A stretch of 64,000 nt of DNA, taken from the NCBI GenBank assembly GCA_023898465.1, contig CP060223.1, positions 896,001-960,000 on the forward strand. The letters run 5' to 3'. How positions within the stretch are numbered: position 1 is the first letter of the stretch; the number at the start of each line of letters is the position of its first letter. This document shows, piece after piece, positions 21,227 through 44,094 of this stretch. A program made the translations under genes and the position numbers. The DNA is from Candidatus Nomurabacteria bacterium. Its GTDB lineage: Bacteria; Patescibacteriota; Patescibacteriia; HK-STAS-PATE-3. Under the pieces are notes generated by a model that ran no database searches, was not told where the DNA came from, and saw only the letters and a list, made by a program, of their open reading frames with translations.

Positions 21227-21235
21227 AGTGTGGCT

Positions 21236-24025: not shown

Positions 24026-24029
24026 GTTC

Positions 24030-24371: not shown

Positions 24372-24378
24372 TATATCT

Positions 24379-24797: not shown

Positions 24798-24923
24798 AAA
24801 AGGAAATGGACATCGTATTTGTATATATTTAATCGCACGCCTAGCTCTTTTGTTTCATGAAAGCTCGCTGTATTAATTCCAAAATCATGCTACTATGCTA
24901 GCAAGTAATTTTACTCTACCTCT

Positions 24924-25163
24924 ATGAAAAAAATTCTCGCTACCTTTTCATTCATACTTTTAGCCAGTCCATCCATTGCCTCAGCCCACACTGGCGTAGA
25001 ACACACAGGGACTTTTTGGCATATTTTTCTCCACCTGCTTAGCGAACCAGATCACATCTTCATAATAGGATCTATCGTTATCCTGGGTTATGGCGTACTG
25101 CTTCATACGAAACCACAGAGGAGTTTATCTCGTGTTCCACGTGGAAGCATTGCTAAGTATTGA
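24924..25163 (+). CDS. hypothetical small secreted/membrane protein (79 aa)
   Basis: Signal-peptide-like N-terminus MKKILATFSFILLASPSIASA, then a TM helix. Confidence 0.35.
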   Translation: MKKILATFSFILLASPSIASAHTGVEHTGTFWHIFLHLLSEPDHIFIIGSIVILGYGVLLHTKPQRSLSRVPRGSIAKY

Positions 25164-25188
25164 CTTCCCTAGGCTAATCGCGTAATAA
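25160..25188 (+). promoter_or_regulatory. promoter TTGACT-17-TAATAA for tRNA-Val(UAC)
   Basis: Exact 17-nt spacing. The tRNA starts 16 nt downstream. Confidence 0.4.
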
Positions 25189-25203
25189 TCAGGCCTGTCC
25201 CAT

Positions 25204-25280
25204 GGGCGGTTAGCTCAGTTGGTTAGAGCGCCTCGTTTACACCGAGGAGGTCGGGGGTTCGACTCCCTCACCGCCCACCA
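25204..25280 (+). tRNA. tRNA-Val(UAC)
   Basis: Acceptor gggcggt/accgccc, anticodon stem cctcg/cgagg, loop tttacac, CCA encoded. Confidence 0.9.
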
Positions 25281-28262: not shown

Positions 28263-28338
28263 TGGTGGACCCTACCGGGCTCGAACCGGTCACCTCCGCG
28301 TTGCAAACGCGGCGCTCTACCAAATGAGCTAAGGGCCC
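28263..28338 (-). tRNA. tRNA-Ala(UGC)
   Basis: Reverse complement gggccct...tttgcaa...agggtcc-a-cca. The G3:U70 Ala identity pair is present. Confidence 0.9.
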
Positions 28339-28626
28339 TTAATTCAGACTATTCGAAACAGGTGAAAAAATATCCCGTAGAAGAGATGGAACAAATCCAG
28401 TCAGTGTAAGAAAAACAATGAAAATCATGAGGATACCGAGAAGCTTTAAAAAAATTCTCGTACCACCCTCGGTACCGAGATGCTGCTCAGCCCATTCGAT
28501 CCGACCAAACCAGTTCATGAAAAAATCAGTCTTGATCACAAGTAGCGCACCTATCAGTATAACGATTCCACCAATTAAATATCGCATAACTCTTCTCGTA
28601 TTATTAACGCCCCCCCCTAGCACCAT
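28339..28626 (-). CDS. hypothetical small membrane protein
   Basis: 95-aa ORF with 2 TM helices. The start is ambiguous (MVLGGG or MRYLIGG). Confidence 0.35.
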   Translation of the reverse strand: MVLGGGVNNTRRVMRYLIGGIVILIGALLVIKTDFFMNWFGRIEWAEQHLGTEGGTRIFLKLLGILMIFIVFLTLTGFVPSLLRDIFSPVSNSLN

Positions 28627-28730
28627 CGAGTACTTGAGCTTGAAAAGCTAAGTACGAGATGAAAAGCGGCACGTTTGCAAAGGGCGCAGTCCGGCTTGGC
28701 CGGGCAAAGCCTGGAGCAAACGATGACGTG

Positions 28731-28807
28731 TGGTGGGCGATCCAGGAATCGAACCTGGGACCTCGTCATTATCAGTGACGCGCTCTAACCAACTGAGCTA
28801 ATCGCCC
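28731..28807 (-). tRNA. tRNA-Ile(GAU)
   Basis: Reverse complement gggcgat...cgtca-ctgataa-tgacg...atcgccc-a-cca. Confidence 0.9.
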
Positions 28808-28813
28808 ATGTTT

Positions 28814-28827
28814 GTTCCCCGTGGAAC
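28814..28827. repeat. 14-nt near-palindrome GTTCCCCGTGGAAC, 7 nt upstream of the tRNA-Ile(GAU) 5' end
   Basis: One of three copies of GTTCCYCGWGGAAC in the window. Confidence 0.5.
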
Positions 28828-28854
28828 ATGATGTAAAACTACATAACAACGCGG

Positions 28855-28940
28855 TGGTGCCGCCGGTCGGACTTGAACCGACATGAGGTTACCCTCAAGG
28901 GATTTTAAGTCCCTCGTGTCTACCATTCCACCACGGCGGC
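28855..28940 (-). tRNA. tRNA-Leu(UAA), type II
   Basis: Reverse complement gccgccg...aggga-cttaaaa-tccct, a long variable arm, and gtcgg-ttcaagt-ccgac-cggcggc-a-cca. Confidence 0.85.
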
Positions 28941-29043
28941 AAGCATTCAAAGCGAATACATGCCATATTTCAACACAAGAATGTCATTCATGCAAGACCA
29001 GCAGGAACCACATGCTAACACGAGTATTTCGGAAAAACAAGAC

Positions 29044-29721
29044 TTACTCGGGTTTATTAAACTCAATCTGCGAAGTAGACTCTTTGCTTCTGCGACTTTT
29101 AATAAACTCCCAGAGGGCGGGCAATAATGAAATAGCAATGATAGCAACTACGACAAAACTAAAATTCTCCTGGATAAAAGGAAGCCTGCCAAAAAAATAT
29201 CCTCCGAACAAGAAAATGCTGACCCAGAGGAATGCTCCAAGCACATTATAAGTGAAAAAGTGACGATATCGCATTAAGCCAACACCTGCAACAAAGGGAG
29301 CTATGGTACGAACAATTGGAACAAATCTCGCAATGACAATTGTCTTTGCTCCATACCTTTCATAAAAACGATGGGTACGGTCAAGATGCTCCTTCCTTAG
29401 CCAACGAGAATTTCTCAACTCATATACTCTTCGACCAAGGTGCTTCCCTATCCAATAGTTTAATCCATCGCCTAACACAGCCGCAGTAAACAGCAAGGCA
29501 AAGAGAAGTATAATATTTAGTGACCCTGCATCAGACAGCGCTCCAGCGGCAAAAAGAAGCGAATCCCCTGGCAAGAAGGGCATAATCACAATGCCCGTCT
29601 CAAGGAAGACAATACCAAAAAGAAGCGCATAGACCCAGGTGCCGTATGTGCTTATAGCTATTCCAAGGCTTTCATCTAAGTGGAGAAAGTATTGAGAAAT
29701 AGTGTGTAATAGCTCGTTCAA
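29044..29721 (-). CDS. DedA-family membrane protein
   Basis: GIVFLETGIVIMPFLPGDSLLFAAGAL and ARFVPIVRT DedA motifs. Confidence 0.85.
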   Translation of the reverse strand: MNELLHTISQYFLHLDESLGIAISTYGTWVYALLFGIVFLETGIVIMPFLPGDSLLFAAGALSDAGSLNIILLFALLFTAAVLGDGLNYWIGKHLGRRVYELRNSRWLRKEHLDRTHRFYERYGAKTIVIARFVPIVRTIAPFVAGVGLMRYRHFFTYNVLGAFLWVSIFLFGGYFFGRLPFIQENFSFVVVAIIAISLLPALWEFIKSRRSKESTSQIEFNKPE

Positions 29722-29796
29722 CTTGAATTAGATAATTGTTTCAGTATTTAGTCAAAATGTTATTTTATTTTTTTTGGCTAACTTTAGTGAGGCGAT

Positions 29797-29810
29797 GTTC
29801 CTCGAGGAAC
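29797..29810. repeat. perfect 14-nt palindrome GTTCCTCGAGGAAC
   Basis: Lies 11 nt 3' of tRNA-Ala(CGC) and about 75 nt upstream of the DedA start. Confidence 0.5.
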
Positions 29811-29820
29811 TTTTTAATTG

Positions 29821-29895
29821 TGGTGGACCAGAGGGGAGTTGAACCCCTGACCCCTGCAATGCGAATGCAGTGCTCTACCACTGAGCTACTGGCCC
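29821..29895 (-). tRNA. tRNA-Ala(CGC)
   Basis: Reverse complement gggccag...ctgca-ttcgcat-tgcag...ctggtcc-a-cca with the G3:U70 pair. Confidence 0.85.
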
Positions 29896-29901
29896 TAGTG
29901 T

Positions 29902-29915
29902 GTTCCTCGTGGAAC
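29902..29915. repeat. 14-nt near-palindrome GTTCCTCGTGGAAC, 7 nt upstream of the tRNA-Ala(CGC) 5' end
   Basis: Same spacing to the tRNA 5' end as the copy at 28814. Confidence 0.5.
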
Positions 29916-29945
29916 AAACGGATGGGAGGCCTAAATTATCTAACG

Positions 29946-30021
29946 TGGTGGACCCTACCGGGCTCGAACCGGTCACCTCTTCCATGCCATGGAAGCGCTC
30001 TACCAAATGAGCTAAGGGCCC
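29946..30021 (-). tRNA. tRNA-Ala(GGC)
   Basis: Body is almost identical to tRNA-Ala(UGC), but the anticodon stem-loop is cttcc-atggcat-ggaag. G3:U70 present. Confidence 0.9.
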
Positions 30022-30073
30022 ATGTGAACTACGGATATTTTAAGCTTCTTTTCTCCGTACCTGCCTCAGCCTT

Positions 30074-30145
30074 TGCCCCCACCATGAATCGAACATGGAT
30101 CCAGGGCTTAGGAGTCCCTTGTTCTATCCTTTGAACTATGGGGGC
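30074..30145 (-). tRNA. tRNA-Arg(CCU); no encoded CCA
   Basis: Reverse complement gccccca...aggga-ctcctaa-gccct (A31:G39 mismatch)...ccatg-ttcgatt-catgg-tgggggc-a. The loop CUCCUAA matches the E. coli argW loop. Confidence 0.7.
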
Positions 30146-30379
30146 AGGGGCGGCGGCAGGCAATTTTCTTTTACCCGAGATTTTGTAACTTTTGTAAAAA
30201 GTTATTTTTTTGCTAGCCTTTGCAAAAAATAAGCGTCGTAGAATATTATGTTAAAAATGCATCTAAGTTACGAGCCATTATTACACCAAGTGGCCATTTT
30301 CGCAATGCCTAAAGAGCCAGATCGATTGACACAGTAGCATCAACAACTTATTGTTACCACGTTTACCACTCATATACAT

Positions 30380-31567: not shown

Positions 31568-31638
31568 GCTCTAGGAAAAAAAACTTTCGCCTAGCCCGTG
31601 TGAACATGGCATTCACATTGTCTTTTCTTAAAATATCT

Positions 31639-31646
31639 TGTATAAT
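31639..31646 (+). promoter_or_regulatory. -10 element TGTATAAT placed 9 nt before the galU ATG
   Basis: ttgtataat, then attcgcgta, then the ATG at 31656. Confidence 0.35.
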
Positions 31647-31655
31647 ATTCGCGTA

Positions 31656-32537
31656 ATGAAAGCAAACGGAACAAAAAAACTTGTACGAAAAGCAGTGATT
31701 CTGGTGGCCGGGTATGGTACCCGATTTTTGCCTGCCACCAAAGCACAGCCAAAAGAAATGCTTCCAGTTATTGACACGCCAGCTGTTCAGCTAAGTGTTG
31801 AGGAAGCCATTAATGCCGGTATTGAAGATATTGTGCTCATTACGGGATCCAGCAAAAGAGCAATTGAGGATCACTTTGATGCAAATACTGACCTGGAAAA
31901 TCGATTACGCCAGCAAAAGAAACATGCGCAACTAGAGAGCATTACACGGATTCAACGTCTGGCAAATTTTATTTACGTTCGACAACCTCAGCCGCTCGGA
32001 AATGGTCATGCCACCTTAATGGCTGAAGCAGCGATTGGAAACGAACCTTTTGTTTTACTCTACCCGGATGACTTAATTGTTTCCAAAAAAAATTCTATCA
32101 AGGAAATGATTCAGGTCTACGAGGAATTTCAAGCGCCAGTTATGGGCCTCTTACACGTAGAGAAAAAAGATGTAACAAAGTACGGCATTGCCAAAGTCAA
32201 CCACATCCGTGAACATATCTACGAAGTCTCTCAGGTTATTGAGAAGCCAACTCTCGCACAAGCACCTTCTCAGCTCGCCTCATTAAAAGGCTTTGTTTTC
32301 CCTCCGATAATTTTTGAATACTTACGCAAAGTACGACGCGGCAAAGATGGAGAAATATGGCTGCCAGATGCCGTAGACCTTTATAACAAAAAACATGCCG
32401 TCTTTGGTTGTGAGCTTAATGGTGAAGTATTTGATCTTGGTTCTAAGCTAGGCTGGTTAAAAGCAAATGTTTCTTTTGCGCTTAAGCGACCAGAGCTGCG
32501 TAAAGAATTCCGCGCCTATCTCAAAAAATTAGTCTAA
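31656..32537 (+). CDS. galU: UTP--glucose-1-phosphate uridylyltransferase
   Basis: KAVILVAGYGTRFLPATKAQPKEMLPV and the overall GalU family. Start chosen at MKANGTKK. Confidence 0.85.
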   Translation: MKANGTKKLVRKAVILVAGYGTRFLPATKAQPKEMLPVIDTPAVQLSVEEAINAGIEDIVLITGSSKRAIEDHFDANTDLENRLRQQKKHAQLESITRIQRLANFIYVRQPQPLGNGHATLMAEAAIGNEPFVLLYPDDLIVSKKNSIKEMIQVYEEFQAPVMGLLHVEKKDVTKYGIAKVNHIREHIYEVSQVIEKPTLAQAPSQLASLKGFVFPPIIFEYLRKVRRGKDGEIWLPDAVDLYNKKHAVFGCELNGEVFDLGSKLGWLKANVSFALKRPELRKEFRAYLKKLV

Positions 32538-32545
32538 GGGGGAAC

Positions 32546-33937
32546 ATGCGACGTTACGTCATTCTCATAGGTATCGTACTCATACCGGTTCTGGCCGTAT
32601 TTATTATCGTGTCCGGGGTTATTAATAAACCACAGCCAAATGTACAGGACGTACCATTAACCTTTTGGACAGTACAAGATGACACAAGCGCCTTTACTGA
32701 CGTGATCGCAGCATATCAGCAAGCCCACCCCTACATTACCATCGAGGTCGTACAAAAGCGTGCTCAAGATTATGGTGAGGCACTTATTCAAGCATGGGCA
32801 CGTGGGGACGGGCCTGATATTTTTTCTCTCCCTAATGCAGAGGTTGGAGAATATGCTGACTTTATTGCCCCATTACCTGAGGCAACACAGGTCTATCAAT
32901 ATCAGAACAAACGCGTGCTTCTCAGTAGGCAGCTTGTGATTACACCGGTCACTTCAAGCTCTATCACCCCGGCCCGCCTCAGTAATGACTATGTAGATGT
33001 TATTGCCAGCGATGTTATCCGAGATGGACAAATATATGCACTCCCATTAAGCGTAGACACCTTAGCAGTCTACGTTAATCGCAACCTTCTAAACACTGCT
33101 AATATTGTTTCACCGGCAACAACCTGGCAAGAGCTTATTTCCCAAGTACCTGATCTCACTATTTTTGATGCGCAAAATAATATTATTCAATCTGGGATCG
33201 CACTTGGAACGGCTGAAAATGTTTCCTACTCAGCTGAAATACTCTCACTGCTCATGATGCAAAACGGTACACAAATGACTGACCCAACTGGAACACGTGT
33301 GCAATTTGATCAGGGAACAAAAGAATATAACGCGGGTGAACGAGCTGTTGATTTCTACACCGACTTCTCTGACGAAACAAAAGCAGTCTACAGCTGGTCA
33401 GGGGATAGCTCACACTCAATTGATAGTTTTATCGAAGGTAAGACTGCCTACTTAATTGGCACCTTAGCTGACCAGGCAACAATTCAGGAGCAAAACCCGG
33501 CACTCCGCTATGACATCGTGCCAATGTTCCACATCAATACCGATGGAACCGACACCAGCGGCAGCACGGGAACGCGTACAAAAATTAACTACGCAAAATA
33601 CTGGGTGCAGACAGTGGCAAAAAATTCCGCTCATAGCAATGAGGCTTGGAATTTTGTGCAATACATGAGTCAGTCAGGCGTCGTCGAGGCATATCTCAAC
33701 GCCAGCGGACGTATTTCTCCTCTCCGAAAAATATTAGCACAACAAGTGAATGTGCCGGCCTTACAAGTCTTTGCCAATCAAGCGCTCACTGCGCAAAATT
33801 GGTATCATGGAAACAGCTGGACACAAACTGAAGGCTATCTCAAGCAACTCATCACCGTTGTTGCTGAAAAAACAAAGTTGCCGTTGGAGGCTTTAAGCCA
33901 AGCTGCTAAACAAGTGCAGCTCACCTTTACTGAATAA
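32546..33937 (+). CDS. extracellular solute-binding protein (ABC-type sugar-binding family 1-like) with an N-terminal membrane anchor
   Basis: 463 aa. N-terminal TM helix and an SBP-like alpha/beta architecture. No permease or ATPase genes are adjacent. Confidence 0.55.
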   Translation: MRRYVILIGIVLIPVLAVFIIVSGVINKPQPNVQDVPLTFWTVQDDTSAFTDVIAAYQQAHPYITIEVVQKRAQDYGEALIQAWARGDGPDIFSLPNAEVGEYADFIAPLPEATQVYQYQNKRVLLSRQLVITPVTSSSITPARLSNDYVDVIASDVIRDGQIYALPLSVDTLAVYVNRNLLNTANIVSPATTWQELISQVPDLTIFDAQNNIIQSGIALGTAENVSYSAEILSLLMMQNGTQMTDPTGTRVQFDQGTKEYNAGERAVDFYTDFSDETKAVYSWSGDSSHSIDSFIEGKTAYLIGTLADQATIQEQNPALRYDIVPMFHINTDGTDTSGSTGTRTKINYAKYWVQTVAKNSAHSNEAWNFVQYMSQSGVVEAYLNASGRISPLRKILAQQVNVPALQVFANQALTAQNWYHGNSWTQTEGYLKQLITVVAEKTKLPLEALSQAAKQVQLTFTE

Positions 33938-33940: not shown

Positions 33941-34924
33941 ATGTTACGTTTACCCTCAACTCGATTCTGGATCATCTCGGGTTTAAGCATGCTTATTGTA
34001 CTTGGCGCAGTAATACCTGCCCGAGCGGAGATCTTACCAAACTGCGAAAAAACACTTTACAAAGTTGAGCTCAATGGAGATCTCGATTGCCCAGATGGAA
34101 CAAACAATTGTATTGATCCAAATGATTACATACAAACTGTACACGGTGATATCGAACAGGTAATGGTCAACCGGAGCTGTGGTTTCAATGACTTCATTCA
34201 GCTCTTTGTGAATCTCGCAAACTGGGGCTTGGCTATTATGGGTGCCCTGGCTGTTTTCTTCTACATGTACGCGGGCTTCCAATTCTTAACTGCCGGCGGT
34301 CGGAGCGAGAATGTCGAGCAGGGTAAAAAAATTCTCTGGGGCACCACTATGGGAGTGATTATCATGCTGACTGCGTGGGCCGTTATTGGTTTCTATATTG
34401 TTGCTACAACTGGCAGTAACCAAGGCTTTGTTTTTCCTAATGATCCTAACTTCCTAGCCCCTTGGTTTGGTCAGACCGAAACTTGTCGACAGACCTATAT
34501 AAAAAATTACGACCAATCTCAGTGTGGACAAAACAATCTTCATATAAACTGTTCAGACCCGATTGATGGAAGCGATGGACCTGTTACTCGTTTGCAAAGC
34601 ATACTTACTCAGCGAGCTTGTAACCCTGGAGGAATAGACGGCTGTTTTGGTTCAAACACTGAAAGTGGGCTCCGACAATTCCAGAGAGTGAATTGGCGCA
34701 GTGGAATTATTGAAGACGGGGTAGTGAATGCCGATGATTGGAGCACCCTACTCAACACTTCTACTGCGTATGATTGTTCAGTCCCGCTAGGTTGCTGCAT
34801 CAATCCTGATGAACCGAGTCTTTGTTATGATCAAATTCCAGAGGCCTACTGTAACCAGAATGGTTGGACCTTCCTACCAGATAGCTGTGCGAGTTACGAC
34901 TTTGACTGTGAAGGACCAAGTTAA
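33941..34924 (+). CDS. long pilin-like paralog: Cys-rich N-terminal region + two-TM hairpin pilin-like core + PG_binding_1 domain + Cys-rich C-terminus
   Basis: The core FIQLFVNLANWGLAIMGALAVFFYMYAGFQFLTAGGRSENVEQGKKILWG...IMLTAWAVIGFYIV is paralogous to the ORFs downstream. Near the C-terminus, LQSILTQRACNPGGIDGCFGSNTESGLRQFQRVNW resembles a peptidoglycan-binding domain. Confidence 0.55.
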   Translation: MLRLPSTRFWIISGLSMLIVLGAVIPARAEILPNCEKTLYKVELNGDLDCPDGTNNCIDPNDYIQTVHGDIEQVMVNRSCGFNDFIQLFVNLANWGLAIMGALAVFFYMYAGFQFLTAGGRSENVEQGKKILWGTTMGVIIMLTAWAVIGFYIVATTGSNQGFVFPNDPNFLAPWFGQTETCRQTYIKNYDQSQCGQNNLHINCSDPIDGSDGPVTRLQSILTQRACNPGGIDGCFGSNTESGLRQFQRVNWRSGIIEDGVVNADDWSTLLNTSTAYDCSVPLGCCINPDEPSLCYDQIPEAYCNQNGWTFLPDSCASYDFDCEGPS

Positions 34925-34937
34925 TTTTCTATTGCAT

Positions 34938-35300
34938 ATGAATACACTACGAAAAAAACGCTTACCACTTATTCTCATGATCGCCGGACTCGTCCTCATG
35001 CCGCTGAGCGCCTTTGCGCAAAGCGGCTCGGCTGTAGCCATACCTAACCCGATTTCGTGTGGTAACTTAATTTGTCTCTTTGTAAACCTCATGCGCCTTA
35101 TTCTGGCCGGCTTAGGTGTCTTTGGCATGGTGATGTTTATTTGGGGAGGCTTTCTCATGCTTACTTCTGCGGGTAATGCTGATCGAATTCAAAAAGGAAA
35201 AGAAACCTTAGTGTGGTCAATTCTTGGTATTTTAGTAATTCTCGGCAGTTGGATACTCCTCAAATCAGTGATTGATGCAATTAACGGGGTTACTAACTAG
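34938..35300 (+). CDS. pilin-like two-TM hairpin protein (divergent paralog, 120 aa)
   Basis: Signal peptide ending AFAQS, then CGNLICLFVNLMRLILAGLGVFGMVMFIWGGFLMLTSAGNADRIQKGKETLVWSILGILVILGSWILL. Confidence 0.6.
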   Translation: MNTLRKKRLPLILMIAGLVLMPLSAFAQSGSAVAIPNPISCGNLICLFVNLMRLILAGLGVFGMVMFIWGGFLMLTSAGNADRIQKGKETLVWSILGILVILGSWILLKSVIDAINGVTN

Positions 35301-35385
35301 GTTTGACGAAGTAGGAAGAGAGAGGTACGCTATATTCGACATAAGGTGAAGGAACACTTCACAATTGAAAGGGGGTGAGAAACAC

Positions 35386-35751
35386 ATGAAACAACGTACA
35401 CGACTGCTCGGCACACTAGCAGCATTTGCTATACTAGCACTTCCGTTGCTTGTTTCCGCCCAATCTGCTTTCACCGTAGAAAACATCGGTGGATCAGTTG
35501 GTCTCGGTACTGCTGACCTCAAAGATACCGTCATCAACATCATTCAATGGGTGCTTGGTATCCTCGCACTCGTTGCTGTCGTTATGATCATCATTGGTGG
35601 TTTCCAGTGGATGACTGCTGGTGGAAACGACGAAAAGGTGGAAAAGGCCAAGAAGATTATCTCAGCCGCGGTAATTGGTCTTATTATCATCTTGTTGGCT
35701 TGGGCTATTGTCATCTTCGTCGCAAATACAACGGCGAATGTCACTACCTAA
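35386..35751 (+). CDS. pilin-like two-TM hairpin protein (VirB2/TrbC-like topology), paralog 1
   Basis: SD agggggtga 6 nt before the ATG. Sec signal peptide ...LLVSAQS/AF. TM1, K-rich loop TAGGNDEKVEKAKK, TM2, C-terminus ANTTANVTT. Confidence 0.7.
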   Translation: MKQRTRLLGTLAAFAILALPLLVSAQSAFTVENIGGSVGLGTADLKDTVINIIQWVLGILALVAVVMIIIGGFQWMTAGGNDEKVEKAKKIISAAVIGLIIILLAWAIVIFVANTTANVTT

Positions 35752-35776
35752 TCCAATCACGTATTTGGACTTTTAG

Positions 35777-35810
35777 AACATACCCAGCTCACTGCTGGGT
35801 ATGTTTTTAT
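35777..35810 (+). terminator. rho-independent terminator
   Basis: aacatacccagc-tcact-gctgggtatgtt followed by tttat. Confidence 0.65.
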
Positions 35811-35873
35811 TCAAAAAAGCCTTACTATGCTATAGTAGTATATATCTTTGAGAAGAAGAGGGGGTGAATATAC

Positions 35874-36230
35874 ATGAAGAAAGCTTTAATCGCAGTCGGT
35901 ACTTTGGCGCTCGTTGCTATGCCAATGCTTGCATCAGCCCAATCTGCTTTCACCGTTGAAAACGTTGGAGGATCCGTCGGTCTCGGTACCGCTGATTTGA
36001 AGGACACCGTCATCAACATCATTCAATGGGTGCTTGGTATTGTCGCCTTAATCGCTGTCGTTATGATCATCATTGGCGGTTTCCAGTGGATGACTGCTGG
36101 TGGAAACGACGAAAAGGTGGAAAAGGCCAAGAAGATTATATCTTCAGCCGTAGTCGGTTTGATTATTGTGTTACTCGCCTGGGCAATTGTTGTATTCGTT
36201 GCAAACACAACCTCAAACGTTACCGCCTAG
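35874..36230 (+). CDS. pilin-like two-TM hairpin protein, paralog 2
   Basis: SD agggggtga. 87-nt and 62-nt segments are nearly identical to paralogs 1 and 3. C-terminus ANTTSNVTA. Confidence 0.75.
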   Translation: MKKALIAVGTLALVAMPMLASAQSAFTVENVGGSVGLGTADLKDTVINIIQWVLGIVALIAVVMIIIGGFQWMTAGGNDEKVEKAKKIISSAVVGLIIVLLAWAIVVFVANTTSNVTA

Positions 36231-36249
36231 CGTACACTTCGCAAATTCT

Positions 36250-36287
36250 GCAAAAGCCCTACCTTATACGAGGGCTTTTGCTTTTTC
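36250..36287 (+). terminator. rho-independent terminator
   Basis: gcaaaagccct...agggcttttgc followed by tttttc. Confidence 0.65.
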
Positions 36288-36307
36288 TGCGCAACTTTTA
36301 TTTTTCA

Positions 36308-36316
36308 TGGTATACT
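36308..36316 (+). promoter_or_regulatory. extended -10 TGGTATACT upstream of paralog 3
   Basis: The same 9-mer as at 17930. Confidence 0.4.
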
Positions 36317-36356
36317 GAATGCATTACATCTTTAGGTAAAGGAGGTGAATGTCAGA

Positions 36357-36725
36357 ATGACCATAAAACGATTTCTTCCCTTAGCGCTACTCGGACTTAC
36401 CTTGGTATTACTGCCTTCTACTGTAGCAGCTCAATCAACCGCCTTTACGATCGAAAATATTGGTGGATCAATCGGTCTCGGTACCGCTGATTTGAAGGAC
36501 ACCGTCATCAACATCATTCAATGGGTGCTTGGTATCCTTTCATTAGTAGCCGTTGTTATGATTATTTTTGGTGGCTTTACCTGGATGACTGCCGGAGGTG
36601 CTGAAGATAAAGTTGATCAAGCCAAGCGTATTATCACCGCTGCAGTAATTGGTCTTATCATCATCTTGTTGGCTTGGGCTATTGTCATCTTCGTCGCAAA
36701 TACAACGGCGAACGTTACCACTTAG
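36357..36725 (+). CDS. pilin-like two-TM hairpin protein, paralog 3
   Basis: SD aaggaggtga. Start chosen at MTIKRF. C-terminus ANTTANVTT. Confidence 0.7.
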   Translation: MTIKRFLPLALLGLTLVLLPSTVAAQSTAFTIENIGGSIGLGTADLKDTVINIIQWVLGILSLVAVVMIIFGGFTWMTAGGAEDKVDQAKRIITAAVIGLIIILLAWAIVIFVANTTANVTT

Positions 36726-36747
36726 GCTACACTAGAATCAAAACACA

Positions 36748-36781
36748 GACCTCTCCATATTTGGGGAGGTTTTGTGCTTTT
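36748..36781 (+). terminator. rho-independent terminator
   Basis: cctctcc-atattt-ggggagg followed by ttttgtgctttt. Confidence 0.6.
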
Positions 36782-36809: not shown

Positions 36810-38816
36810 ATGTCTAAAATACCGGATAGAACACAGGCCTGGCTGCTAGGAATGATGATCTGTATGATTGTTATCTCTTTTGCAGGTCAATACGTAAAAT
36901 GGCAAAGTCTGGCCTATAACGGACTCGATTTGGGTATTTACACTCAAGTAGTATCAGAAACCAGCCAAGGGAATTTCTTTGGCTTCACCATTCACCCGCA
37001 CTCCTACTTGGGTGACCATGTTGAATTTTTACTATTACTCCTTGTGCCTCTTTTTTGGATTGTGGCTCATCCACTCTGGCTCTTGGCCGCACAAAGCCTT
37101 GTGTTGGCTTTAGGCGCTATCCCTATATTTCGCCTTGCACGCAAAAAACTAAATGGTAACTGGGCTCTAGGTTTAAGTGCAGCCTACCTTTTTTCGCCTT
37201 TCCTCTGGAATGCAAACATGTATGAATTTCACATGTTAGCTTTTGCAATTCCAATCTTACTTGCGGCACTACAAACCTACATCACTAAATCACTCAAGTG
37301 GCATTGGCTTTGGCTGGCTTTGGCCTTGCTCGTACGAGAAGATGTTGCCTTTGTAGTATTTGGCATTGGTATTGTGGCTGCAATTGAGCGGAGGAATTGG
37401 AAATGGTGGCTACCCACCTTTTTGGTTAGCGCTGCCTGGTTTGGATGTAGTATTTATCTCGCTGGATCCTTGGGCACTTTGGGTGAATATAAATTTCTCA
37501 AATACTATGGATGGCTCGGCCCCGATCTTGTTTCTATTATCGGAAACTTTTTTGGACATCCCTGGCTCGTACTCCAACGCGTGCTTCATCCGCAAGCGCT
37601 TGCTTTCTTGCTAGGCCTAGGACTCCCTTTTGCCTATTTGCCAATCTTCCGACTTCGTTGGCTTATCCCGATCTTACCTATCTACTTACAACTTTCTCTC
37701 TCAGGAGTTGCGCGAGAAATCTCACTAGAAATGCACTACGTGAGTTTGTTCTTACCATTTCTCTGGATTGGCTCTATTGAGGCAATACACAAACTTCGTA
37801 GTGAAATGGGAAAAACTCGACGAGGAAAATTTATCCAAGAATACGCCGGGGTTATTGTTAGCGTACTCGCTGTTGTGGCAATATATTGCTTCATCGTAAT
37901 CGGTCCGATTCGCGGCCTGGCACAAACCTGGTATCGACCAGATACGCAACGTGAACATGAACAGTTAGCCAGAGATGTGCTCAACATTGTACCCGATACC
38001 ACACCTCTCGCAACTGGATATCGCTTTATTTCATGGACAGCCACTCGACCCGTGTTGTACTCCTTGCACTATCTTTTTATTGGCCGGCAACAATATAGCG
38101 ATGAAAGTTTCCCACTTGACCCTAGCATCCAAACGCTGCTCATAGACCAAAGTGATTTTGTTACCTATCAATCAGTCTATCCGGAAGATAATACCGACTA
38201 CAAAGGTGGTGCCCAGCGCTTCCGCGATCTCATTGAAGAAAGAAAGCTTCAGCTCAATCTCATGGTTGACGATCTCTTGCTCTATACAAACACCCATACT
38301 ACATCCCAAAAAGAATTAGTGCGTATTGGAAATGAAGATCAACTAAGACAAAGCCTCTTTCAGACAAGCAACGGACTCATCTTGCACTCCTGGGAGAATA
38401 ATGAAGGAATCAACAAACTTCAAAGTGAATATGTGCATATTAACACGCACAACTACCTCACCCTCCCGCTCTCGTTTATCTGGTCTCAGCATGAAATAAC
38501 AACGCGTCATAATACCGTACTACTCACACTGACTCGGGGAGACGGCGCAGTGTATCAAAAAGAATATCCCATCGCCCCGCTCTGGCCGCAATCAGAGTGG
38601 CCATTAGATACTCCAATGATTACGCAACACCAATTTCTCATCCCGACCGACTTCGCCCAAAGTGATACCCAGATAGCAATGGATGTGATGTCGATTCGGG
38701 GTCGATTAAGTTTGGATACCCAACGCTCTATCGTGCCTCGCTACGATGAACACGACTCCTTGGGCCACCTTAATCTCGGAAATCTTATTCTACCGGACGC
38801 AAGCGATACAGAGTAA
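36810..38816 (+). CDS. large polytopic membrane protein (DUF2079-like, putative GT-C-type) with a C-terminal extracytoplasmic domain
   Basis: 668 aa. About 12 N-terminal TM helices, with FTIHPHSYLGDHVEF and LWLLAAQSLVLALGAIPIFRL motifs, then a 300-aa soluble C-terminal domain. Confidence 0.5.
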   Translation: MSKIPDRTQAWLLGMMICMIVISFAGQYVKWQSLAYNGLDLGIYTQVVSETSQGNFFGFTIHPHSYLGDHVEFLLLLLVPLFWIVAHPLWLLAAQSLVLALGAIPIFRLARKKLNGNWALGLSAAYLFSPFLWNANMYEFHMLAFAIPILLAALQTYITKSLKWHWLWLALALLVREDVAFVVFGIGIVAAIERRNWKWWLPTFLVSAAWFGCSIYLAGSLGTLGEYKFLKYYGWLGPDLVSIIGNFFGHPWLVLQRVLHPQALAFLLGLGLPFAYLPIFRLRWLIPILPIYLQLSLSGVAREISLEMHYVSLFLPFLWIGSIEAIHKLRSEMGKTRRGKFIQEYAGVIVSVLAVVAIYCFIVIGPIRGLAQTWYRPDTQREHEQLARDVLNIVPDTTPLATGYRFISWTATRPVLYSLHYLFIGRQQYSDESFPLDPSIQTLLIDQSDFVTYQSVYPEDNTDYKGGAQRFRDLIEERKLQLNLMVDDLLLYTNTHTTSQKELVRIGNEDQLRQSLFQTSNGLILHSWENNEGINKLQSEYVHINTHNYLTLPLSFIWSQHEITTRHNTVLLTLTRGDGAVYQKEYPIAPLWPQSEWPLDTPMITQHQFLIPTDFAQSDTQIAMDVMSIRGRLSLDTQRSIVPRYDEHDSLGHLNLGNLILPDASDTE

Positions 38817-40422
38817 GCTCGCCTGATTGGTATACTGTCTGAAGTGCAGAAATCGCGCTTGGATCAGCCACACTATTCCGCGTATCAAATTCACCCCATA
38901 GTAAATAATCCACACTCTGCTCTCGCAACCATCTTTCAAGGGCAGTATTTCCACTTTGGCGCGCTACAATAAAACCATCTGATTTGTCATTGTAATGCAA
39001 GGTTTCAATCGGGTGTCCAAATACCACTGCCCGACCCGCCCAAGCTGGTATATAGAGATTGCCAATTTTCCCAGCTGCAAAAACTGCACGAGTATCGGTG
39101 TGTGTTTTCATCCAGTCACTCATATCTTGATAAGATTGATCGACGTAGAGGTGGTATGGCGGCTGACGAAAAGTATCATTCGTCCAAAGATGTACATCCA
39201 TGCCCACTAAAGCAATCGGCGAAAGACTAAACACTACTACGGCCAGCATTGGAGTGGCTACATAGCGAGACCAGCTTACTAATGGAAATCGCTTGAATAC
39301 TATACGAAGACCAATAAAAGCAAATAAAGCTAGGGGGAGCATCCAACCTTCAGTTAGGCGGCGACTAAAACTAATCGGCAAAAAGAAAATACATGCTTGC
39401 CCAAACAACCACGCAAGCGGCATTGCGTAGGTGCTTCGATCACGACCTAGTTGAAACAAAGCAAGAAGGGCCAGCGGAATAAGAGCGCCATAGCTAATAA
39501 GTGTGGTAAAAAAGAATGGCATAGTATTCACATTCTGAGCCGCTCGGCTATTCGCAATTGGGTCAAAAAGTATTATCCCAACTTGGTAGAAAATCATTGG
39601 CAGCGCTAGTCCTCCTACAAGAAGCGCCCCCCACAAAGCCCGTGCCGTTTTATCCCGCTGCCATAAAAAAGTGAAGAGTATAAAAAGCACAAAAACCCCT
39701 ATCACTGTTGGTAAGTGAAAGGGGTGAAAGCTCATAAGTAAAAAAAGCGACAGGCCGCTTTGCAAAAAATACTGTATTTGCTTTTGCTGCACCCCGAGGT
39801 AATACCAATGAAAAATGAGAATAAGTAATGAGGTGGCTAAAATAAAATGCGGGCTCTGATACATCGTTAAAAATGTATACGCTTCACTTACCCAGAGATC
39901 CATCGGCCAAATCGCCCACTCAATAAATCCAAAAATGTATTTAATAAAAGGATATGCAATTGCTCCAAATCCTGCAGCAAAAAGAAAAAGCAAAATAGCA
40001 AATTTACGCTCACGCCATGCCGGAAGAAAATTGCGTAAGAAAATTTCGCTCGACCATAGGAGTAAGGGGATGAGGAGGATTCGGGCTAAATGAAAACTTA
40101 CTAATGCGGAAAGGTGCAGCCACTTTGCCATATATCCAACAACAATCCAGATTGGACTGAAAATAAAAGCGTCATGCGGCTCAGCAGTAAACAAATCCCT
40201 AAGCATCACCTGTCCCTGTTTTACCTGTTCTATGTAGGAAAAATAGACCGGCAAATCACCTGGAGCCAGTGTATGTCCTCCGGTAAAAATCATCCCATCT
40301 GCCTGCATCATCCACGCGTAGAGGTAAGGGAACGTTGTGAGAATAACTAAAGCGAGGGCTATCCACCAAAACCAACGACGTGGCATTTTTTCAGCATCTG
40401 GGTGAAGAGAAAAAAACTGCAT
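38785..40422 (-). CDS. polytopic GT-C-like membrane glycosyltransferase (last gene of a four-gene operon)
   Basis: 545 aa with more than 10 TM helices. Its ATG overlaps the stop of the upstream Dpm1-like gene (TAATG). Confidence 0.45.
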   Translation of the reverse strand: MQFFSLHPDAEKMPRRWFWWIALALVILTTFPYLYAWMMQADGMIFTGGHTLAPGDLPVYFSYIEQVKQGQVMLRDLFTAEPHDAFIFSPIWIVVGYMAKWLHLSALVSFHLARILLIPLLLWSSEIFLRNFLPAWRERKFAILLFLFAAGFGAIAYPFIKYIFGFIEWAIWPMDLWVSEAYTFLTMYQSPHFILATSLLILIFHWYYLGVQQKQIQYFLQSGLSLFLLMSFHPFHLPTVIGVFVLFILFTFLWQRDKTARALWGALLVGGLALPMIFYQVGIILFDPIANSRAAQNVNTMPFFFTTLISYGALIPLALLALFQLGRDRSTYAMPLAWLFGQACIFFLPISFSRRLTEGWMLPLALFAFIGLRIVFKRFPLVSWSRYVATPMLAVVVFSLSPIALVGMDVHLWTNDTFRQPPYHLYVDQSYQDMSDWMKTHTDTRAVFAAGKIGNLYIPAWAGRAVVFGHPIETLHYNDKSDGFIVARQSGNTALERWLREQSVDYLLWGEFDTRNSVADPSAISALQTVYQSGELTLYRLRPVE

Positions 40423-41120
40423 TACTTCTGAGAGCGAAACAATAATGCAAGAATCATTTGAGCGTATTCACGAGCAATCGTGAATGAAATTTTACTCTTG
40501 CCATATTGGCGATCCTGAAAAACATAGCCGATTTCTGTGGTCTGAAGTGGACGCGCTCGAACCAAAATCTCTACTAAAAGTTTATACCCGCGCGGACGTA
40601 AAGTATGTGCAATGCGTGTATACACATCTCGTCGTACGGCAAAATATCCGCTCATAGGATCACGCTCTCGAATACCGAGCATCACCTGAGCAATCCTAGT
40701 AGCAAACCAACTCATGGCTTGGCGTCGCAGAGGCCAACCTAACATACCGCCGCCACTAACAAAGCGTGAACCGATAGCCACGTCATTACCTAACTGCACC
40801 GCCCTAATCATCTGCGGAATAATTGCCGTATCATGCGAAAGATCGGCATCCATGCAAATAAAAATTTCTGATCTGGCCTCTTCCATACCAGCCATCAGTG
40901 CAGAAGCAAGGCCTAACTTACCTGTTCGCTCAATAACCCTGACTGGATAGTGAGCAGCCAGCGAACGAACAAGCTGAGCGGTCCCATCTGGCGAAGCATC
41001 GTCAACCACAATTATCTCGACAACCAGCTGCAAGCGGGCAATCTGTCGAAGGCACGCCTCAATGTTCTCCTTTTCATTATAGGTTGGCAGGATAATGCTA
41101 GCTTTTGGCAAGGCGCTCAT
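40422..41120 (-). CDS. polyprenol-phosphate mannose (or other sugar) synthase, GT2 (Dpm1/Ppm1-like)
   Basis: ASIILPTYNEKENIEACL...VVDDASPDGT...DADLSHD motifs of the GT2 dolichol-P-mannose synthase family. Confidence 0.85.
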   Translation of the reverse strand: MSALPKASIILPTYNEKENIEACLRQIARLQLVVEIIVVDDASPDGTAQLVRSLAAHYPVRVIERTGKLGLASALMAGMEEARSEIFICMDADLSHDTAIIPQMIRAVQLGNDVAIGSRFVSGGGMLGWPLRRQAMSWFATRIAQVMLGIRERDPMSGYFAVRRDVYTRIAHTLRPRGYKLLVEILVRARPLQTTEIGYVFQDRQYGKSKISFTIAREYAQMILALLFRSQK

Positions 41121-42406
41121 GAAGATACGGATTTGGACTGATCGCTCGACCCTGATGAAGTATAAGGCAGGGCTGCTAATAGGAAAACAAGCGCGAGGTA
41201 ACCCAGGTGTGTGTCATTAAAATACCGGGCAAAAAACCAAAAAACAAGCAGGGTAAATCCATAGTACCAGAAGATATTTTGCAGGGAAATGTCTAGTCGA
41301 CTCTTCCTCAATAAAAGGAGAAAACTCGGGATTCCAATGCAGAGAGAAAAAACCCAAAATGGGAAATGTCCGTAGGGATCAATAACATGAAAAGTTGCCA
41401 TCCACTGGGCAATACCTAAACCTGATGCTGGATAACTCAACTCAGCGCTGCCGTTTGCATACTTCCAAACGTCATCATAAAAAGCTCCTGGCGACCAGAG
41501 AAAGAAAAAACCCATAACCACAATAAGGAGAAGTAGCGAAGGAAATAATGGACGATATACTTGCCGCCAAGGACCTGGTTTCCGGCGCTGCCATACTGCT
41601 ACGAGGTAAAATGGCACAAAGAGCCAGGCGGACTGCTTCATCAGTAAAGCAAAAACCAGAGCAAATCCCGAGCTCGTGTATCTGCCTCGATAAAGCGCTA
41701 GGGCTGCGAGGAAGAGGAAAAGCAATACGGTGATGTCATTCAACCCAGCCACAATAAACTTCAACATAAATGGATTCAACGCAGTAAGGATAATTGCTAG
41801 ATCTCTCCAAGGAGCTTGCACGGTTTTTGCTAAGAGTAAGAGGAAGGCAATCCAAAAAAGTAAGTACAGCGCACGTACATCAAACCAACCAGTAAATCGC
41901 TCTAGGCTCCATTGCCACGGCGCCACGATAAGGAAAGAGCCTGGTAAATACACATAGTGCTCCCAGGCTGGATTGGGTCGCGTGCTATCAGAAAAACGAT
42001 CAGGGAACACACCAAAAGCTGTACCACGATAATCACTCGCATAAGGATTTTTACCCTGTAGGAGAAAATGACTCGCTTCCTCAGTCTGGATTGCACCATC
42101 GTGCACATATGCTTCTAGTGGACGATAAGGTCGTACCAGCATCTGCAAGGTACAGACGGTCACTAGGATGCCTATGCTTAAGATAAGGACGATCCTTGTT
42201 CGCATCTCATCTGCTGATGGGGCAAAGATAAGACTTAATCCATACGCAAACACCAGCAACAAAGGCAGGATGCCAAACCAGAAAAGTGGTGTGGGGGAAA
42301 AGAAATAACTAAAGGCCTGCTGACCTGAAAAAACCTCGGCCATCACATAAAGCACGAGGAGAAGAATGAGAACAAAAGTAAAACGTCGAATCGTGATTCC
42401 GTTCAT
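41117..42406 (-). CDS. polytopic membrane glycosyltransferase (DUF2029/GT87-like, polyprenol-P-sugar dependent)
   Basis: 429 aa with more than 10 TM helices. Contains the FLLQGKNPY motif. Overlaps its downstream neighbour by 4 nt. Confidence 0.45.
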   Translation of the reverse strand: MNGITIRRFTFVLILLLVLYVMAEVFSGQQAFSYFFSPTPLFWFGILPLLLVFAYGLSLIFAPSADEMRTRIVLILSIGILVTVCTLQMLVRPYRPLEAYVHDGAIQTEEASHFLLQGKNPYASDYRGTAFGVFPDRFSDSTRPNPAWEHYVYLPGSFLIVAPWQWSLERFTGWFDVRALYLLFWIAFLLLLAKTVQAPWRDLAIILTALNPFMLKFIVAGLNDITVLLFLFLAALALYRGRYTSSGFALVFALLMKQSAWLFVPFYLVAVWQRRKPGPWRQVYRPLFPSLLLLIVVMGFFFLWSPGAFYDDVWKYANGSAELSYPASGLGIAQWMATFHVIDPYGHFPFWVFSLCIGIPSFLLLLRKSRLDISLQNIFWYYGFTLLVFWFFARYFNDTHLGYLALVFLLAALPYTSSGSSDQSKSVSS

Positions 42407-44041
42407 TTACGGAGCAACTGCATAAATCTTAGCCTCCTTGTCTTCGTAGACCAGTGAGACCCCCTCTGTACCATCTACTAAACGATCCATAGCTACATGA
42501 TCTTTAGTAACAACTACGTACGATGCATGAAAAGTATCACGTAGAGTGGTACTCACCGTGCTCGGATCTGACTTCCCGGTGGTTAAATCAACCCAAGCCC
42601 AATAGCGATCTTCATCGTGGGCATACAAAAAGGTTGGATCTAAACCAGCAATATAGCGATGTGATGGATCATAGTAAAAAAGGAGTGGAAACTCATCCCA
42701 GTCACTATGTACGACAATCTCGTCTGATGGGGCATTTGCTTTTAACCAAGTGCCAACACCAGACAGGGTTGAGGCATCTTGCCCACCCGCTAGGTCGCGT
42801 CGCACATTTCGCAAGTCACGTACACCCACGCCAACCACTCCTATAACAACATAGGCGAGGATTATCACTGCGACCGTTTTTGAAAGGACGCTATGACGCC
42901 ACCCGGCCACAACATCTCGCAAAAGCGCTTTACCTGCCTTACCAGAGAGTGCGTCGCTGATGGAAAAAGCTCCAAACAACATACCAATCGGCACATAGTA
43001 TTCAACGTAGCGCTTGGACTTCAGGGTAAGCAGGAAAAAGAAAATGGTTAGCAAGAAGAGGGTCCAGGAGCGGACAGACTGCTTTCGTAATTGCAGAGCC
43101 ATACCGAATATCCCTAACACCACCACAATAGAAACAAAGATGGTGGTAGGAATAAGCTCACCGATGTGATACGGATACCACTCTCCGCCTACGCCAATGC
43201 TATGTTGCGCATTAATAATGCCAATCTTAAAAAGCTGGTATTCGTAAAATCGAATGTTGTGCGGGAAGCTAGGATTAAGCAATAGACCTGCCAGCATCCC
43301 ACCCCCAACCGCCAAACCTATGGTGATGTAAAGACGCCAAGAAGCTTCATGGTGTCGCCAACGATCATACTGCTCATGCAGACGAGTAAGGAGAGAACGA
43401 GAATCACTCTGATGGAGTATCCAATAACGGACTAAGCCCACCAGGCAAAACACCGCTGTACAAACAAGCAGCAGGGAAAATCCGCCGTATACCCAAACAA
43501 AAATCCATGAGTACACAAAAGCCCACTTTGCTCGGAAGTGAAACACCAACCATAAACCAGCCAAAAGAAGTGTCACTCCCAGAACAGGCGCTTTTGGTAA
43601 ACCCATCCGAAACATGAATGGATTCACAAACAAAAGCAACAAGGTAAATACAAATGCCCATCGCACTTGGAAGGAACGAAGGAGGCCATAGAACATGCCA
43701 GCCATCACTGCAGTGAGTAAAATAGTGGCGACTTTTATCCCGACCAGTGGATCAGCTATAGAAACAAACGGGATGAGAATAACGTGATAAAGAAAATGCT
43801 GATTAATGTAATTCTCACTCAGGGATGTAAAAGGCAGCCAGGGAAACTGCGTAAAAAAACCTTTGTCAGCTACCAGGGTTGCCATCCGAGCATGATAAAA
43901 AGAATCAGGATCAGCAAAAGCATCATGCAATTGCAAATACGATGCAATGACCAGGGCAATCATCATGATAAGCAGACCGGTCAGAAAGGGCGTCCGGCAA
44001 AAGATACGATAGATTTTATACCACCAAGCCTCCTTTTCCAT
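42407..44041 (-). CDS. GT-C membrane glycosyltransferase with an STT3/AglB-like first-loop motif DPDSFYHAR
   Basis: 544 aa. First external loop DAFADPDSFYHARMATLV resembles the STT3/AglB DxD loop (compare eukaryotic FDPWFNYR). The C-terminal soluble domain contains SDWDEF, a possible degenerate WWDYG. Confidence 0.4.
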   Translation of the reverse strand: MEKEAWWYKIYRIFCRTPFLTGLLIMMIALVIASYLQLHDAFADPDSFYHARMATLVADKGFFTQFPWLPFTSLSENYINQHFLYHVILIPFVSIADPLVGIKVATILLTAVMAGMFYGLLRSFQVRWAFVFTLLLLFVNPFMFRMGLPKAPVLGVTLLLAGLWLVFHFRAKWAFVYSWIFVWVYGGFSLLLVCTAVFCLVGLVRYWILHQSDSRSLLTRLHEQYDRWRHHEASWRLYITIGLAVGGGMLAGLLLNPSFPHNIRFYEYQLFKIGIINAQHSIGVGGEWYPYHIGELIPTTIFVSIVVVLGIFGMALQLRKQSVRSWTLFLLTIFFFLLTLKSKRYVEYYVPIGMLFGAFSISDALSGKAGKALLRDVVAGWRHSVLSKTVAVIILAYVVIGVVGVGVRDLRNVRRDLAGGQDASTLSGVGTWLKANAPSDEIVVHSDWDEFPLLFYYDPSHRYIAGLDPTFLYAHDEDRYWAWVDLTTGKSDPSTVSTTLRDTFHASYVVVTKDHVAMDRLVDGTEGVSLVYEDKEAKIYAVAP

Positions 44042-44048
44042 ACGCTAA

Positions 44049-44057
44049 AGTATAGCA
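44049..44057 (-). promoter_or_regulatory. extended -10 TGCTATACT placed 7 nt before the first ATG of the glycosylation operon (leaderless-type)
   Basis: Minus strand reads gaatgctatact, then ttagcgt, then the ATG at 44041. Confidence 0.4.
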
Positions 44058-44094
44058 TTCTCATGCCTACACGGCGAACTGCTGATTAGCGAAT

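Follow-up and report, generated by a model that had tools for sequence, protein, structure and literature searches.

How does a monoderm bacterium, which has no outer-membrane core complex, hold, nucleate and position pilins of the VirB2 type? The locus described here offers a concrete candidate for the protein involved as well as an experimental handle. VirB2-type pilins are not known from the type IV secretion systems (T4SSs) of other monoderm bacteria; Patescibacteria are the reported exception, with pilin arrays that are essential for their epibiotic life (PMC10633639, PMC12857230). A 2025 review describes patescibacterial T4SSs as the only ones of the Gram-positive type with VirB2-like subunits (PMC12857230). 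We analysed 64 kb of the genome of an ultrasmall patescibacterium, a Candidatus Nomurabacteria bacterium (contig CP060223.1; this whole stretch is the window in what follows), which contain five consecutive genes of the T4SS_pilin family (33941..36725, plus strand) and hence an array in the published sense of at least two such genes in tandem or with a single gene between them (PMC12102498). The first of the five (33941..34924) encodes a protein of 327 amino acids (aa), here called the long protein, in which a pilin hairpin is joined to a peptidoglycan (PG)-binding domain.

A continuous gene for a pilin hairpin and a peptidoglycan-binding domain

The long gene is an unbroken frame of 327 codons with an ATG start. 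Its product is identical to the NCBI entry USN53415.1, 'MAG: peptidoglycan-binding protein [Candidatus Nomurabacteria bacterium]' on a contig of 1,082,586 bp, a name that the NCBI pipeline took from the PG-binding domain only. Two Pfam models match the protein above their cut-offs, T4SS_pilin (PF18895) at aa 91-151 with 29.7 bits (cut-off 26.6) and PG_binding_1 (PF01471) at aa 214-265 with 27.1 bits (curated cut-off 23). An earlier note on this DNA, made from the sequence alone, had described a pilin-like hairpin (the stretch it quoted is aa 85-134) together with a PG_binding_1-like segment (aa 218-252) and had named a Pfam search as a check; this search was run and bore out the PG-binding domain. 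Profile matches of the domain to PDB entries had E-values of 1e-8 to 1e-5. Furthermore, the domain contains the motif D233-G-C-F-G-S-N-T240, which fits the PG_binding_1 signature D-G-(hydrophobic)2-G-x-x-T of the phiKZ endolysin literature. The family described below shows no variation at G234 and C235 of this motif and hardly any at T240, and D233 is conserved as well.

Hydropathy analysis revealed hydrophobic segments at aa 6-33, ~88-116 and ~131-158. A signal peptide was called from the first of these and from an ARA/E cleavage site read in the sequence. The protein hence consists of a signal peptide followed by two hydrophobic helices with a short polar loop between them, as in VirB2-like pilins. 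It exceeds the mature size of such single-domain pilins (~70-120 aa), being a 327-aa precursor with exodomains of 55 aa at the N-terminal and 170 aa at the C-terminal side of the hairpin.

An assembly or annotation artefact, in which a short pilin gene and a PG-binding gene were joined by a frameshift, can be practically dismissed, as at least 39 clusters (50% identity level) contain the same continuous open reading frame (ORF) with a conserved junction. The homologues were assembled independently of one another (JGI, ENA, Logan, NCBI), which excludes a fusion by frameshift or assembly error; scanned singly, all 39 members match T4SS_pilin and 35 match PG_binding_1 (best E 2.9e-18), in one ORF each. 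The long gene is therefore a real and conserved hybrid of a pilin hairpin and a PG_binding_1 domain.

The family of long proteins

We built a profile from the first five homologues, ran it over 1.84 billion cluster representatives and inspected the best 150 matches. Among these, about 35 proteins of 276-497 aa matched continuously from the N-terminus through the PG-binding domain, and the remaining ones were unrelated proteins with PG_binding_1 repeats. The resulting alignment comprises 39 sequences that are 28-55% identical to the long protein of the window; a word-index homologue search with the 39-sequence profile yielded almost no additions. Invariant positions in this alignment are C80, F85, G120, G138, C182, C195, C204, Q219, G234, C235 and C279, and near-invariant ones are P33, C35, L88, N91, G96, G111, G112, K129, L143, C227, T240 and F247. 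Both lists include a Cys of the N-terminal module, where C80 is invariant and C35 near-invariant.

Between loci, the hairpin is the best-conserved part of the protein (48-75% identity in four of five comparisons), the exodomains are ~26-47% identical, and the tail cannot be aligned. Some members of the family carry one to four Cys-rich 'GCC' modules as their tail, others a beta domain of ~90 aa, and others no tail at all. Since the minimal members stop right after the PG-binding domain, it is this domain and not the tail that represents the conserved function. The linker between hairpin and PG-binding domain comprises 23 aa and is conserved in length and partly in sequence.

The earlier note had stated that the hairpin matches that of the short paralogues in the same array, and this was confirmed: PF18895 is found in all of them, the long hairpin is 27-42% identical to the short pilins of the window, and hhalign related the two with 99.8% (E 6e-29, 82 columns). 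The long and the short pilin families share the conserved residues G112, G120, K129, G138 and L143. This pilin-like conservation indicates more constraint on the hairpin than a plain membrane anchor would need.

Predicted structure, cysteines and topology

AlphaFold2 modelling with the 39-sequence alignment resulted in a mean pLDDT of 86.6 and a pTM of 0.64 and superseded a poor model based on five sequences only (pLDDT 53). In the model, the signal helix (aa 6-23) is followed by a small beta module with strands 38-42 and 71-76 and by a long helical hairpin (82-117 / 122-157) with the loop GGRS. The linker (158-180) is modelled less confidently, with the lowest values of the mature part. A helix at 182-189 leads into the three PG_binding_1 helices (214-224, 238-250 and 264-271), which form a three-helix bundle, and the protein ends in a compact Cys-rich tail with strands 283-287, 295-300 and 310-312 and a helix 301-306. 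The predicted fold thus agrees with the Pfam assignment of the PG-binding domain. A fold search with the hairpin was non-discriminating.

Of the 16 Cys of the long protein, four precede the hairpin (aa 30-84) and 12 follow it (aa 158-327); the hairpin and its loop are free of Cys. The signal/anchor and Cys-containing region that the earlier note had placed ahead of the hairpin correspond to the signal peptide and the module with four Cys, and its count of at least ten Cys in the C-terminal region is surpassed. Cys makes up 4.6% of the residues across the 39-member family, the Cys count is even in 33 of the 39 homologues (of the six with an odd count, one clearly lacks part of its N-terminus), and the hairpin columns hold a single Cys in all members combined. 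This distribution is consistent with oxidised exodomains that are stapled by disulfides. With the signal peptide removed and two helices crossing the membrane, the N-terminal module as well as the C-terminal 170 aa would lie on the outer side of the cytoplasmic membrane. The predicted orientation is N-out/C-out, with the PG-binding domain and all Cys on the extracytoplasmic side, and this is the established topology of VirB2-type pilins.

A fixed gene order in related loci

Via exact-protein look-ups and genome and metagenome collections we gathered 21 related loci, among them one 1.03-Mb Patescibacteria contig and two metagenome-assembled genomes of Kerfeldbacteria, and annotated them with profiles from our own alignments. 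Where the contig reaches far enough, the order of genes is NTP_transferase, solute-binding protein (SBP), long pilin/PG-binder, a short pilin with two Cys, one to three Cys-free short pilins, DUF2079 and a convergent block of genes for membrane proteins, GT2 or GT87/MptA_B-like proteins, in some cases PAP2, and phosphoglucose isomerase. The SBP gene lies directly upstream of the long gene in all loci that reach that far, often with a 4-nt overlap; in the window its stop codon lies 3 nt ahead of the ATG of the long gene.

The long gene is single-copy and stands first in about 20 loci, compared to one to three copies of the conserved short pilin. The proposition of the earlier note that orthologous arrays always start with a long PG-binding member therefore holds for about 20 of the 21 related loci, but 'always' is too strong. 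The locus L022 (2199..7008 of Ga0265297_10004846) carries NTP_transferase and SBP genes followed by nine T4SS_pilin genes, none of which has a PG_binding_1 domain; three of the nine have N-terminal extensions of 130-160 aa, and rpoB is located downstream.

The 2-Cys pilin, with a PN-PIxCxxxxC motif just before helix 1, is likewise single-copy. It always separates the long member from the conserved pilins, so that three set types of subunit follow each other in a constant order along the array. The Cys-free pilins share an ENIGGSxGLGTADLK... motif and are 66-75% identical between loci, which is far above any neighbouring gene. In 16 of 17 aligned cases they end in ..T(T)xNVTx (seen in the window at 35386..36725 and in L001, L002, L004, L005, L009, L010, L012 and L016-L020), which puts an N-x-T sequon on the predicted outer face. 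This tail points to a modified, possibly glycosylated, C-terminus of these pilins.

Identities to the window across the related loci are 43-46% for the GalU-like protein, 41-56% for the SBP, 32-48% for DUF2079 and 32-51% for the long protein; judged by sequence, the related lineages are deeply diverged. About 14 kb (31638..33937 and 36810..45147 in the window; L004, L010, L012, L018 and L020) are nevertheless syntenic across these Patescibacteria. Its convergent part includes membrane proteins of 540 aa. The syntenic block looks like a system for extracytoplasmic glycosylation that depends on polyprenol-phosphate sugars and is coupled to the pilins.

Other members of the T4SS_pilin family also have unusual architectures. 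P0154 (820 aa) contains eight tandem T4SS_pilin domains (PF18895, 223 bits, eight stretches) and is either a real poly-pilin or a product of read-through gene calling, and P0158 (248 aa) and P0007 (235 aa) carry N-terminal extensions of 130-165 aa without a recognised domain. As far as domain predictions go, the extra domains on this family extend beyond the PG-binding type.

Proposed role of the long protein and alternative explanations

We tentatively favour a role of the long protein as a wall tether or adaptor that would tie a putative pilin assembly to the cell wall of its own producer, which we consider a serious possibility, if somewhat short of probable. The protein would be exported via Sec as a VirB2-like member of the T4SS_pilin family. 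After signal cleavage, the two-helix hairpin would reside in the cytoplasmic membrane with both ends outside, one being the small Cys-stapled N-terminal module and the other the disulfide-rich 170-aa exodomain with its PG_binding_1 three-helix core. The hairpin would pack with the short pilins via the same helix-helix interface, and the exodomain would bind the producer's own PG non-covalently; related Paceibacteria carry genes for PG synthesis (supplement of PMC10936435). In this way, the long protein may tether, and perhaps nucleate or terminate, a pilin assembly at a monoderm wall that has no outer-membrane core complex. We rank this role highest because the linker is short and conserved, the PG-binding core is conserved and monoderms have no outer-membrane complex. 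A short and conserved linker would also keep the PG-binding domain close to the membrane.

Several observations weigh against this proposal. No candidates for VirB4, VirD4 or VirB6 were found in the window, in which every ORF of at least 490 aa is accounted for. Similarly, the flanks of the 21 related loci contain no large ORF with a Walker A motif, and VirB4, VirD4 and VirB6 are absent within 10 kb of any of them. The long pilin is thus not encoded beside T4SS genes (VirB4, VirB6, VirB3/PrgI) in the window or the related flanks, and as a T4SS ATPase or channel gene is missing there, the link to a type IV secretion pilus is given by family membership only. Finally, a variable tail of Cys-rich repeats or a beta domain would be expected of a surface-exposed part that recognises a partner, and it fits an adhesin at least as well as an internal anchor.

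Such an adhesin, with the long subunit at the tip of or decorating an extracellular VirB2-type filament and its PG-binding domain and tail bound to the wall of a host or prey during epibiotic attachment, seems to us rather unlikely as a whole. In known conjugative pili both pilin termini face outward, and pili of the VirB2 family grow from the base, so that the subunits incorporated first end at the tip; a single-copy gene at the first position of the array would suit this arrangement. The exodomains, above all the tail, evolve fastest and switch type between lineages, as host-recognition modules do, and T4SS and pilin arrays are needed for epibiotic growth in Saccharibacteria (PMC10633639, PMC12857230). 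However, a 25-kDa disulfide-rich load would need to cross the producer's own wall, the connection to the membrane hairpin is short and conserved, and the conserved part of the exodomain is the PG-binding core, with variability confined to the tail. That some Paceibacteria parasitise archaea (PMC10936435) is a further argument against wall recognition on a partner cell.

We also regard it as doubtful, albeit worth consideration, that no filament is formed at all. The array would in this case encode small membrane (glyco)proteins of the envelope that act together with the products of the SBP, DUF2079 and glycosyltransferase genes, and the long member would be a tether or organiser between membrane and wall, built on a pilin-derived hairpin. 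None of the flanks examined links the cluster to a T4SS gene, the cluster is always embedded between NTP_transferase and SBP on one side and DUF2079 and GT2/GT87-like genes on the other, although the GalU-like protein is only ~44% identical between loci, and the short pilins have the conserved C-terminal N-V-T sequon. On the other hand, the profile family is the same as that of the pilins found near virB4 in 1,135 assemblies (PMC12102498) and essential in Southlakia, the ordered make-up with minor- and major-like subunits resembles that of pilus operons, and the pilin-specific residues conserved in the hairpin would be superfluous in a plain anchor.

It may further be speculated, at low probability, that Patescibacteria have an undescribed but widely conserved surface-organelle locus with the long protein as its defining subunit. 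This locus would comprise the SBP, the wall-binding pilin, the 2-Cys pilin, conserved, C-terminally glycosylated major pilins and dedicated polyprenol-dependent glycosyltransferases, and it would build a VirB2-type filament and anchor it in the wall independently of a co-located, and perhaps of any, T4SS ATPase. If this holds true, it would represent a monoderm-specific way of pilus anchoring that may mediate host attachment or nutrient capture.

Least probable by far among the roles considered is a pro-pilin whose C-terminal exodomain is cleaved after export to leave an ordinary short pilin and a free wall-binding protein: C-terminal processing of VirB2-family pilins is established for RP4 TrbC and the T-pilin and the linker at aa 158-180 has the lowest model confidence of the mature part, but the conserved cluster contains no protease gene, no cleavage motif was identified in the protein, and the linker is not disordered and is conserved in length and partly in sequence.

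Comparison with known systems

The closest known counterparts are the VirB2-like arrays of Patescibacteria (PF18895; Wang et al. 2023, PMC10633639; Quinonero-Coronel et al. 2025, PMC12102498), which belong to the same Pfam family and phylum and consist of 2-11 tandem genes for two-helix pilins with signal peptides in a monoderm cell. Such arrays were found in 383 Patescibacteria assemblies with the same Pfam model, and a pilin gene lies near virB4 in 1,135 of 1,948 assemblies (PMC12102498 / 10.1101/2025.01.22.634366). A pilin array is essential in Southlakia epibionticum (PMC10633639). The published arrays contain short, divergent pilins (mean identity 25%) and are often located beside virB4, whereas the multi-copy members described here are 66-75% identical between loci. 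Moreover, the array described here has a leading member with a PG_binding_1 exodomain and a fixed three-type order, and it is unlinked from virB4 and linked to SBP and glycosylation-type genes. Neither the cited papers on patescibacterial pilin arrays nor full-text searches of the literature revealed a mention of a pilin fused to a PG-binding domain, and USN53415, H6760 and MFA5070293 do not occur in the accessible part of the supplement text of Quinonero-Coronel 2025. While the pilin array as such is known, the wall-binding leader, the three-type order, the conservation of the multi-copy pilins and the setting among SBP and glycosylation genes without T4SS genes appear undescribed. The close linkage to an orphan SBP and to extracytoplasmic glycosylation genes, together with the lack of T4SS genes nearby, suggests that some patescibacterial 'T4SS pilin' arrays form part of a separate envelope module, which matters for annotating and interpreting such genes across thousands of metagenome-assembled genomes.

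The Mbov_0395/MMCAP2_0565 pilin-like conjugal transfer proteins of mycoplasma integrative and conjugative elements (NCBIfam NF045849), which belong to monoderm systems of the MPF_FATA type, are likewise short hairpins. The short paralogues reach 41.5-41.8 bits with this model (cut-off 40) and the long protein 14.8 bits; the mycoplasma proteins differ in having no PG-binding domain, and mycoplasmas have no PG.

A tether of the kind proposed above would act by analogy with the accessory proteins ExeA/GspA, TagL and MotB or with the basal pilin of sortase-assembled pili, and not as a member of any of these families. GspA/ExeA (EpsAB) of type II secretion differs in that ExeA has one transmembrane helix and a cytoplasmic ATPase domain but no pilin-like hairpin, and it acts on the secretin of diderms. 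PG-binding extensions on cellular machines are found in TagL/TssL of type VI secretion and MotB (OmpA-like) and in LysM proteins associated with PilQ. In these cases a core membrane component carries, or is accompanied by, an accessory wall-binding module that fixes the machine in the wall, as could be the case here; their PG-binding folds (OmpA-like, LysM) and core partners are different, and they operate in diderms. In monoderms, SpaB-type basal minor pilins of sortase-assembled Gram-positive pili link the pilus to PG and terminate its assembly. They resemble the proposed role in being a single minor subunit of a pilin gene cluster, but their covalent LPXTG/sortase attachment, Ig-like folds and different assembly pathway have no counterpart here.

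Kuroda et al. 2024 reported highly expressed Paceibacteria proteins with a 'peptidoglycan-binding domain'. In the accessible part of that source, PMX_810_sub_00350, one of the three in question, is a 2079-nt gene without a Pfam match, and no link to the long protein was established.

Genomic neighbourhood

The window represents ordinary chromosome with gyrA, ftsH, S1, a CCA-adding enzyme, tRNA, glycolysis and glycogen genes. A prophage or lysis cassette was considered and dropped, as the surrounding genes are chromosomal ones with housekeeping and envelope functions. Genes for a bactofilin, a DAGK-like kinase, the GalU-like NTP_transferase and the membrane-anchored sugar-type SBP were found upstream of the long gene (Table 1), and no ABC permease or ATPase gene adjoins the SBP gene. 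A promoter-like site that matches the consensus at 10 of 12 positions (31618..31646; consensus match only) precedes the NTP_transferase gene. Together with the terminator-like hairpin after the last pilin gene, it suggests one transcription unit of NTP_transferase, SBP and the five pilin genes.

Table 1 Features of the pilin locus and its surroundings. Positions refer to the 64-kb window; aa positions refer to the long protein, and the slash in the signal peptide marks the predicted cleavage site.
Feature	Coordinates	Strand	Evidence
Long pilin/PG-binding gene, 327 aa, USN53415.1	33941..34924	+	ORF, two Pfam matches, 39-member family, AlphaFold pLDDT 86.6
Predicted signal peptide, aa 1-29 (..VIPARA/EILPNCE)	33941..34027	+	Hydrophobic aa 6-33 and AXA site by eye; model helix 6-23
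Predicted extracytoplasmic N-terminal module, aa 30-84, 4 Cys	34028..34192	+	Strands 38-42, 71-76 (pLDDT 78-93), conservation, charge and Cys counts
VirB2-like two-helix hairpin, aa 85-157, loop GGRSENVEQGKK	34193..34411	+	PF18895, model helices 82-117/122-157, hhalign
Short conserved linker, aa 158-180	34412..34480	+	pLDDT ~70; F165 near-invariant
PG_binding_1 domain, putatively disulfide-stapled, aa 181-278	34481..34774	+	Pfam match aa 214-265 = 34580..34735
Cys-rich C-terminal mini-domain, aa 279-327, 7 Cys	34775..34921	+	pLDDT ~90; strands 283-287, 295-300, 310-312
2-Cys short pilin (..PNPISCGNLIC.. before helix 1)	34950..35300	+	PF18895; order in ~20 loci
Cys-free short pilin 1, C-terminus ANTTANVTT	35386..35751 (alternative start 35365)	+	PF18895, 55.6 bits; alignment
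Cys-free short pilin 2, C-terminus ANTTSNVTA, USN53418.1	35874..36230	+	PF18895, 58.1 bits
Cys-free short pilin 3, C-terminus ANTTANVTT	36345..36725	+	PF18895, 47.5 bits
GalU-like sugar-1-phosphate nucleotidyltransferase, conserved first gene of the cluster	31638..32537	+	PF00483; synteny
Membrane-anchored sugar-type SBP	32546..33937	+	PF01547; distant PDB sugar SBPs
Terminator-like hairpin, 11 pairs and T-rich tail, between last pilin gene and DUF2079	36747..36772	+	Consensus scan only
DUF2079 multi-pass membrane protein, directly 3' of the array	36810..38816	+	PF09852, E 1e-58; synteny
Convergent block: 545-aa membrane protein, GT2 glycosyltransferase, 429-aa and 544-aa membrane proteins, phosphoglucose isomerase	38785..45147	-	Pfam; orthologues

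The DUF2079 protein gave no PDB match by sequence. Orthologues of the convergent block occur in L004, L010, L012, L018 and L020, some of them annotated as GT87 or MptA_B-like. Three genes on the minus strand in this block (38785..40422, 41117..42406 and 42407..44041) were considered as VirB4, VirD4 or VirB6 and rejected, as they have no Pfam match and encode membrane proteins that are conserved in the glycosylation block. The ORF at 46484..47539 (plus strand) likewise has no Pfam match.

Ten tRNA genes were detected in the window, at 28263..30146 on the minus strand and at 18993..25280 on the plus strand. The former include a cluster of six (Ala-TGC, Ile-GAT, Leu-TAA, Ala-CGC, Ala-GGC, Arg-CCT) that lies close to the bactofilin gene on its upstream side. 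A glycogen-type storage locus adjoins the envelope cluster at 47529..54130, where a pair of paralogous GT5 glycogen/starch synthases and a pair of GH57 enzymes are encoded in a row; one of the GH57 enzymes has a UVR motif and a weak match to polysaccharide deacetylase.

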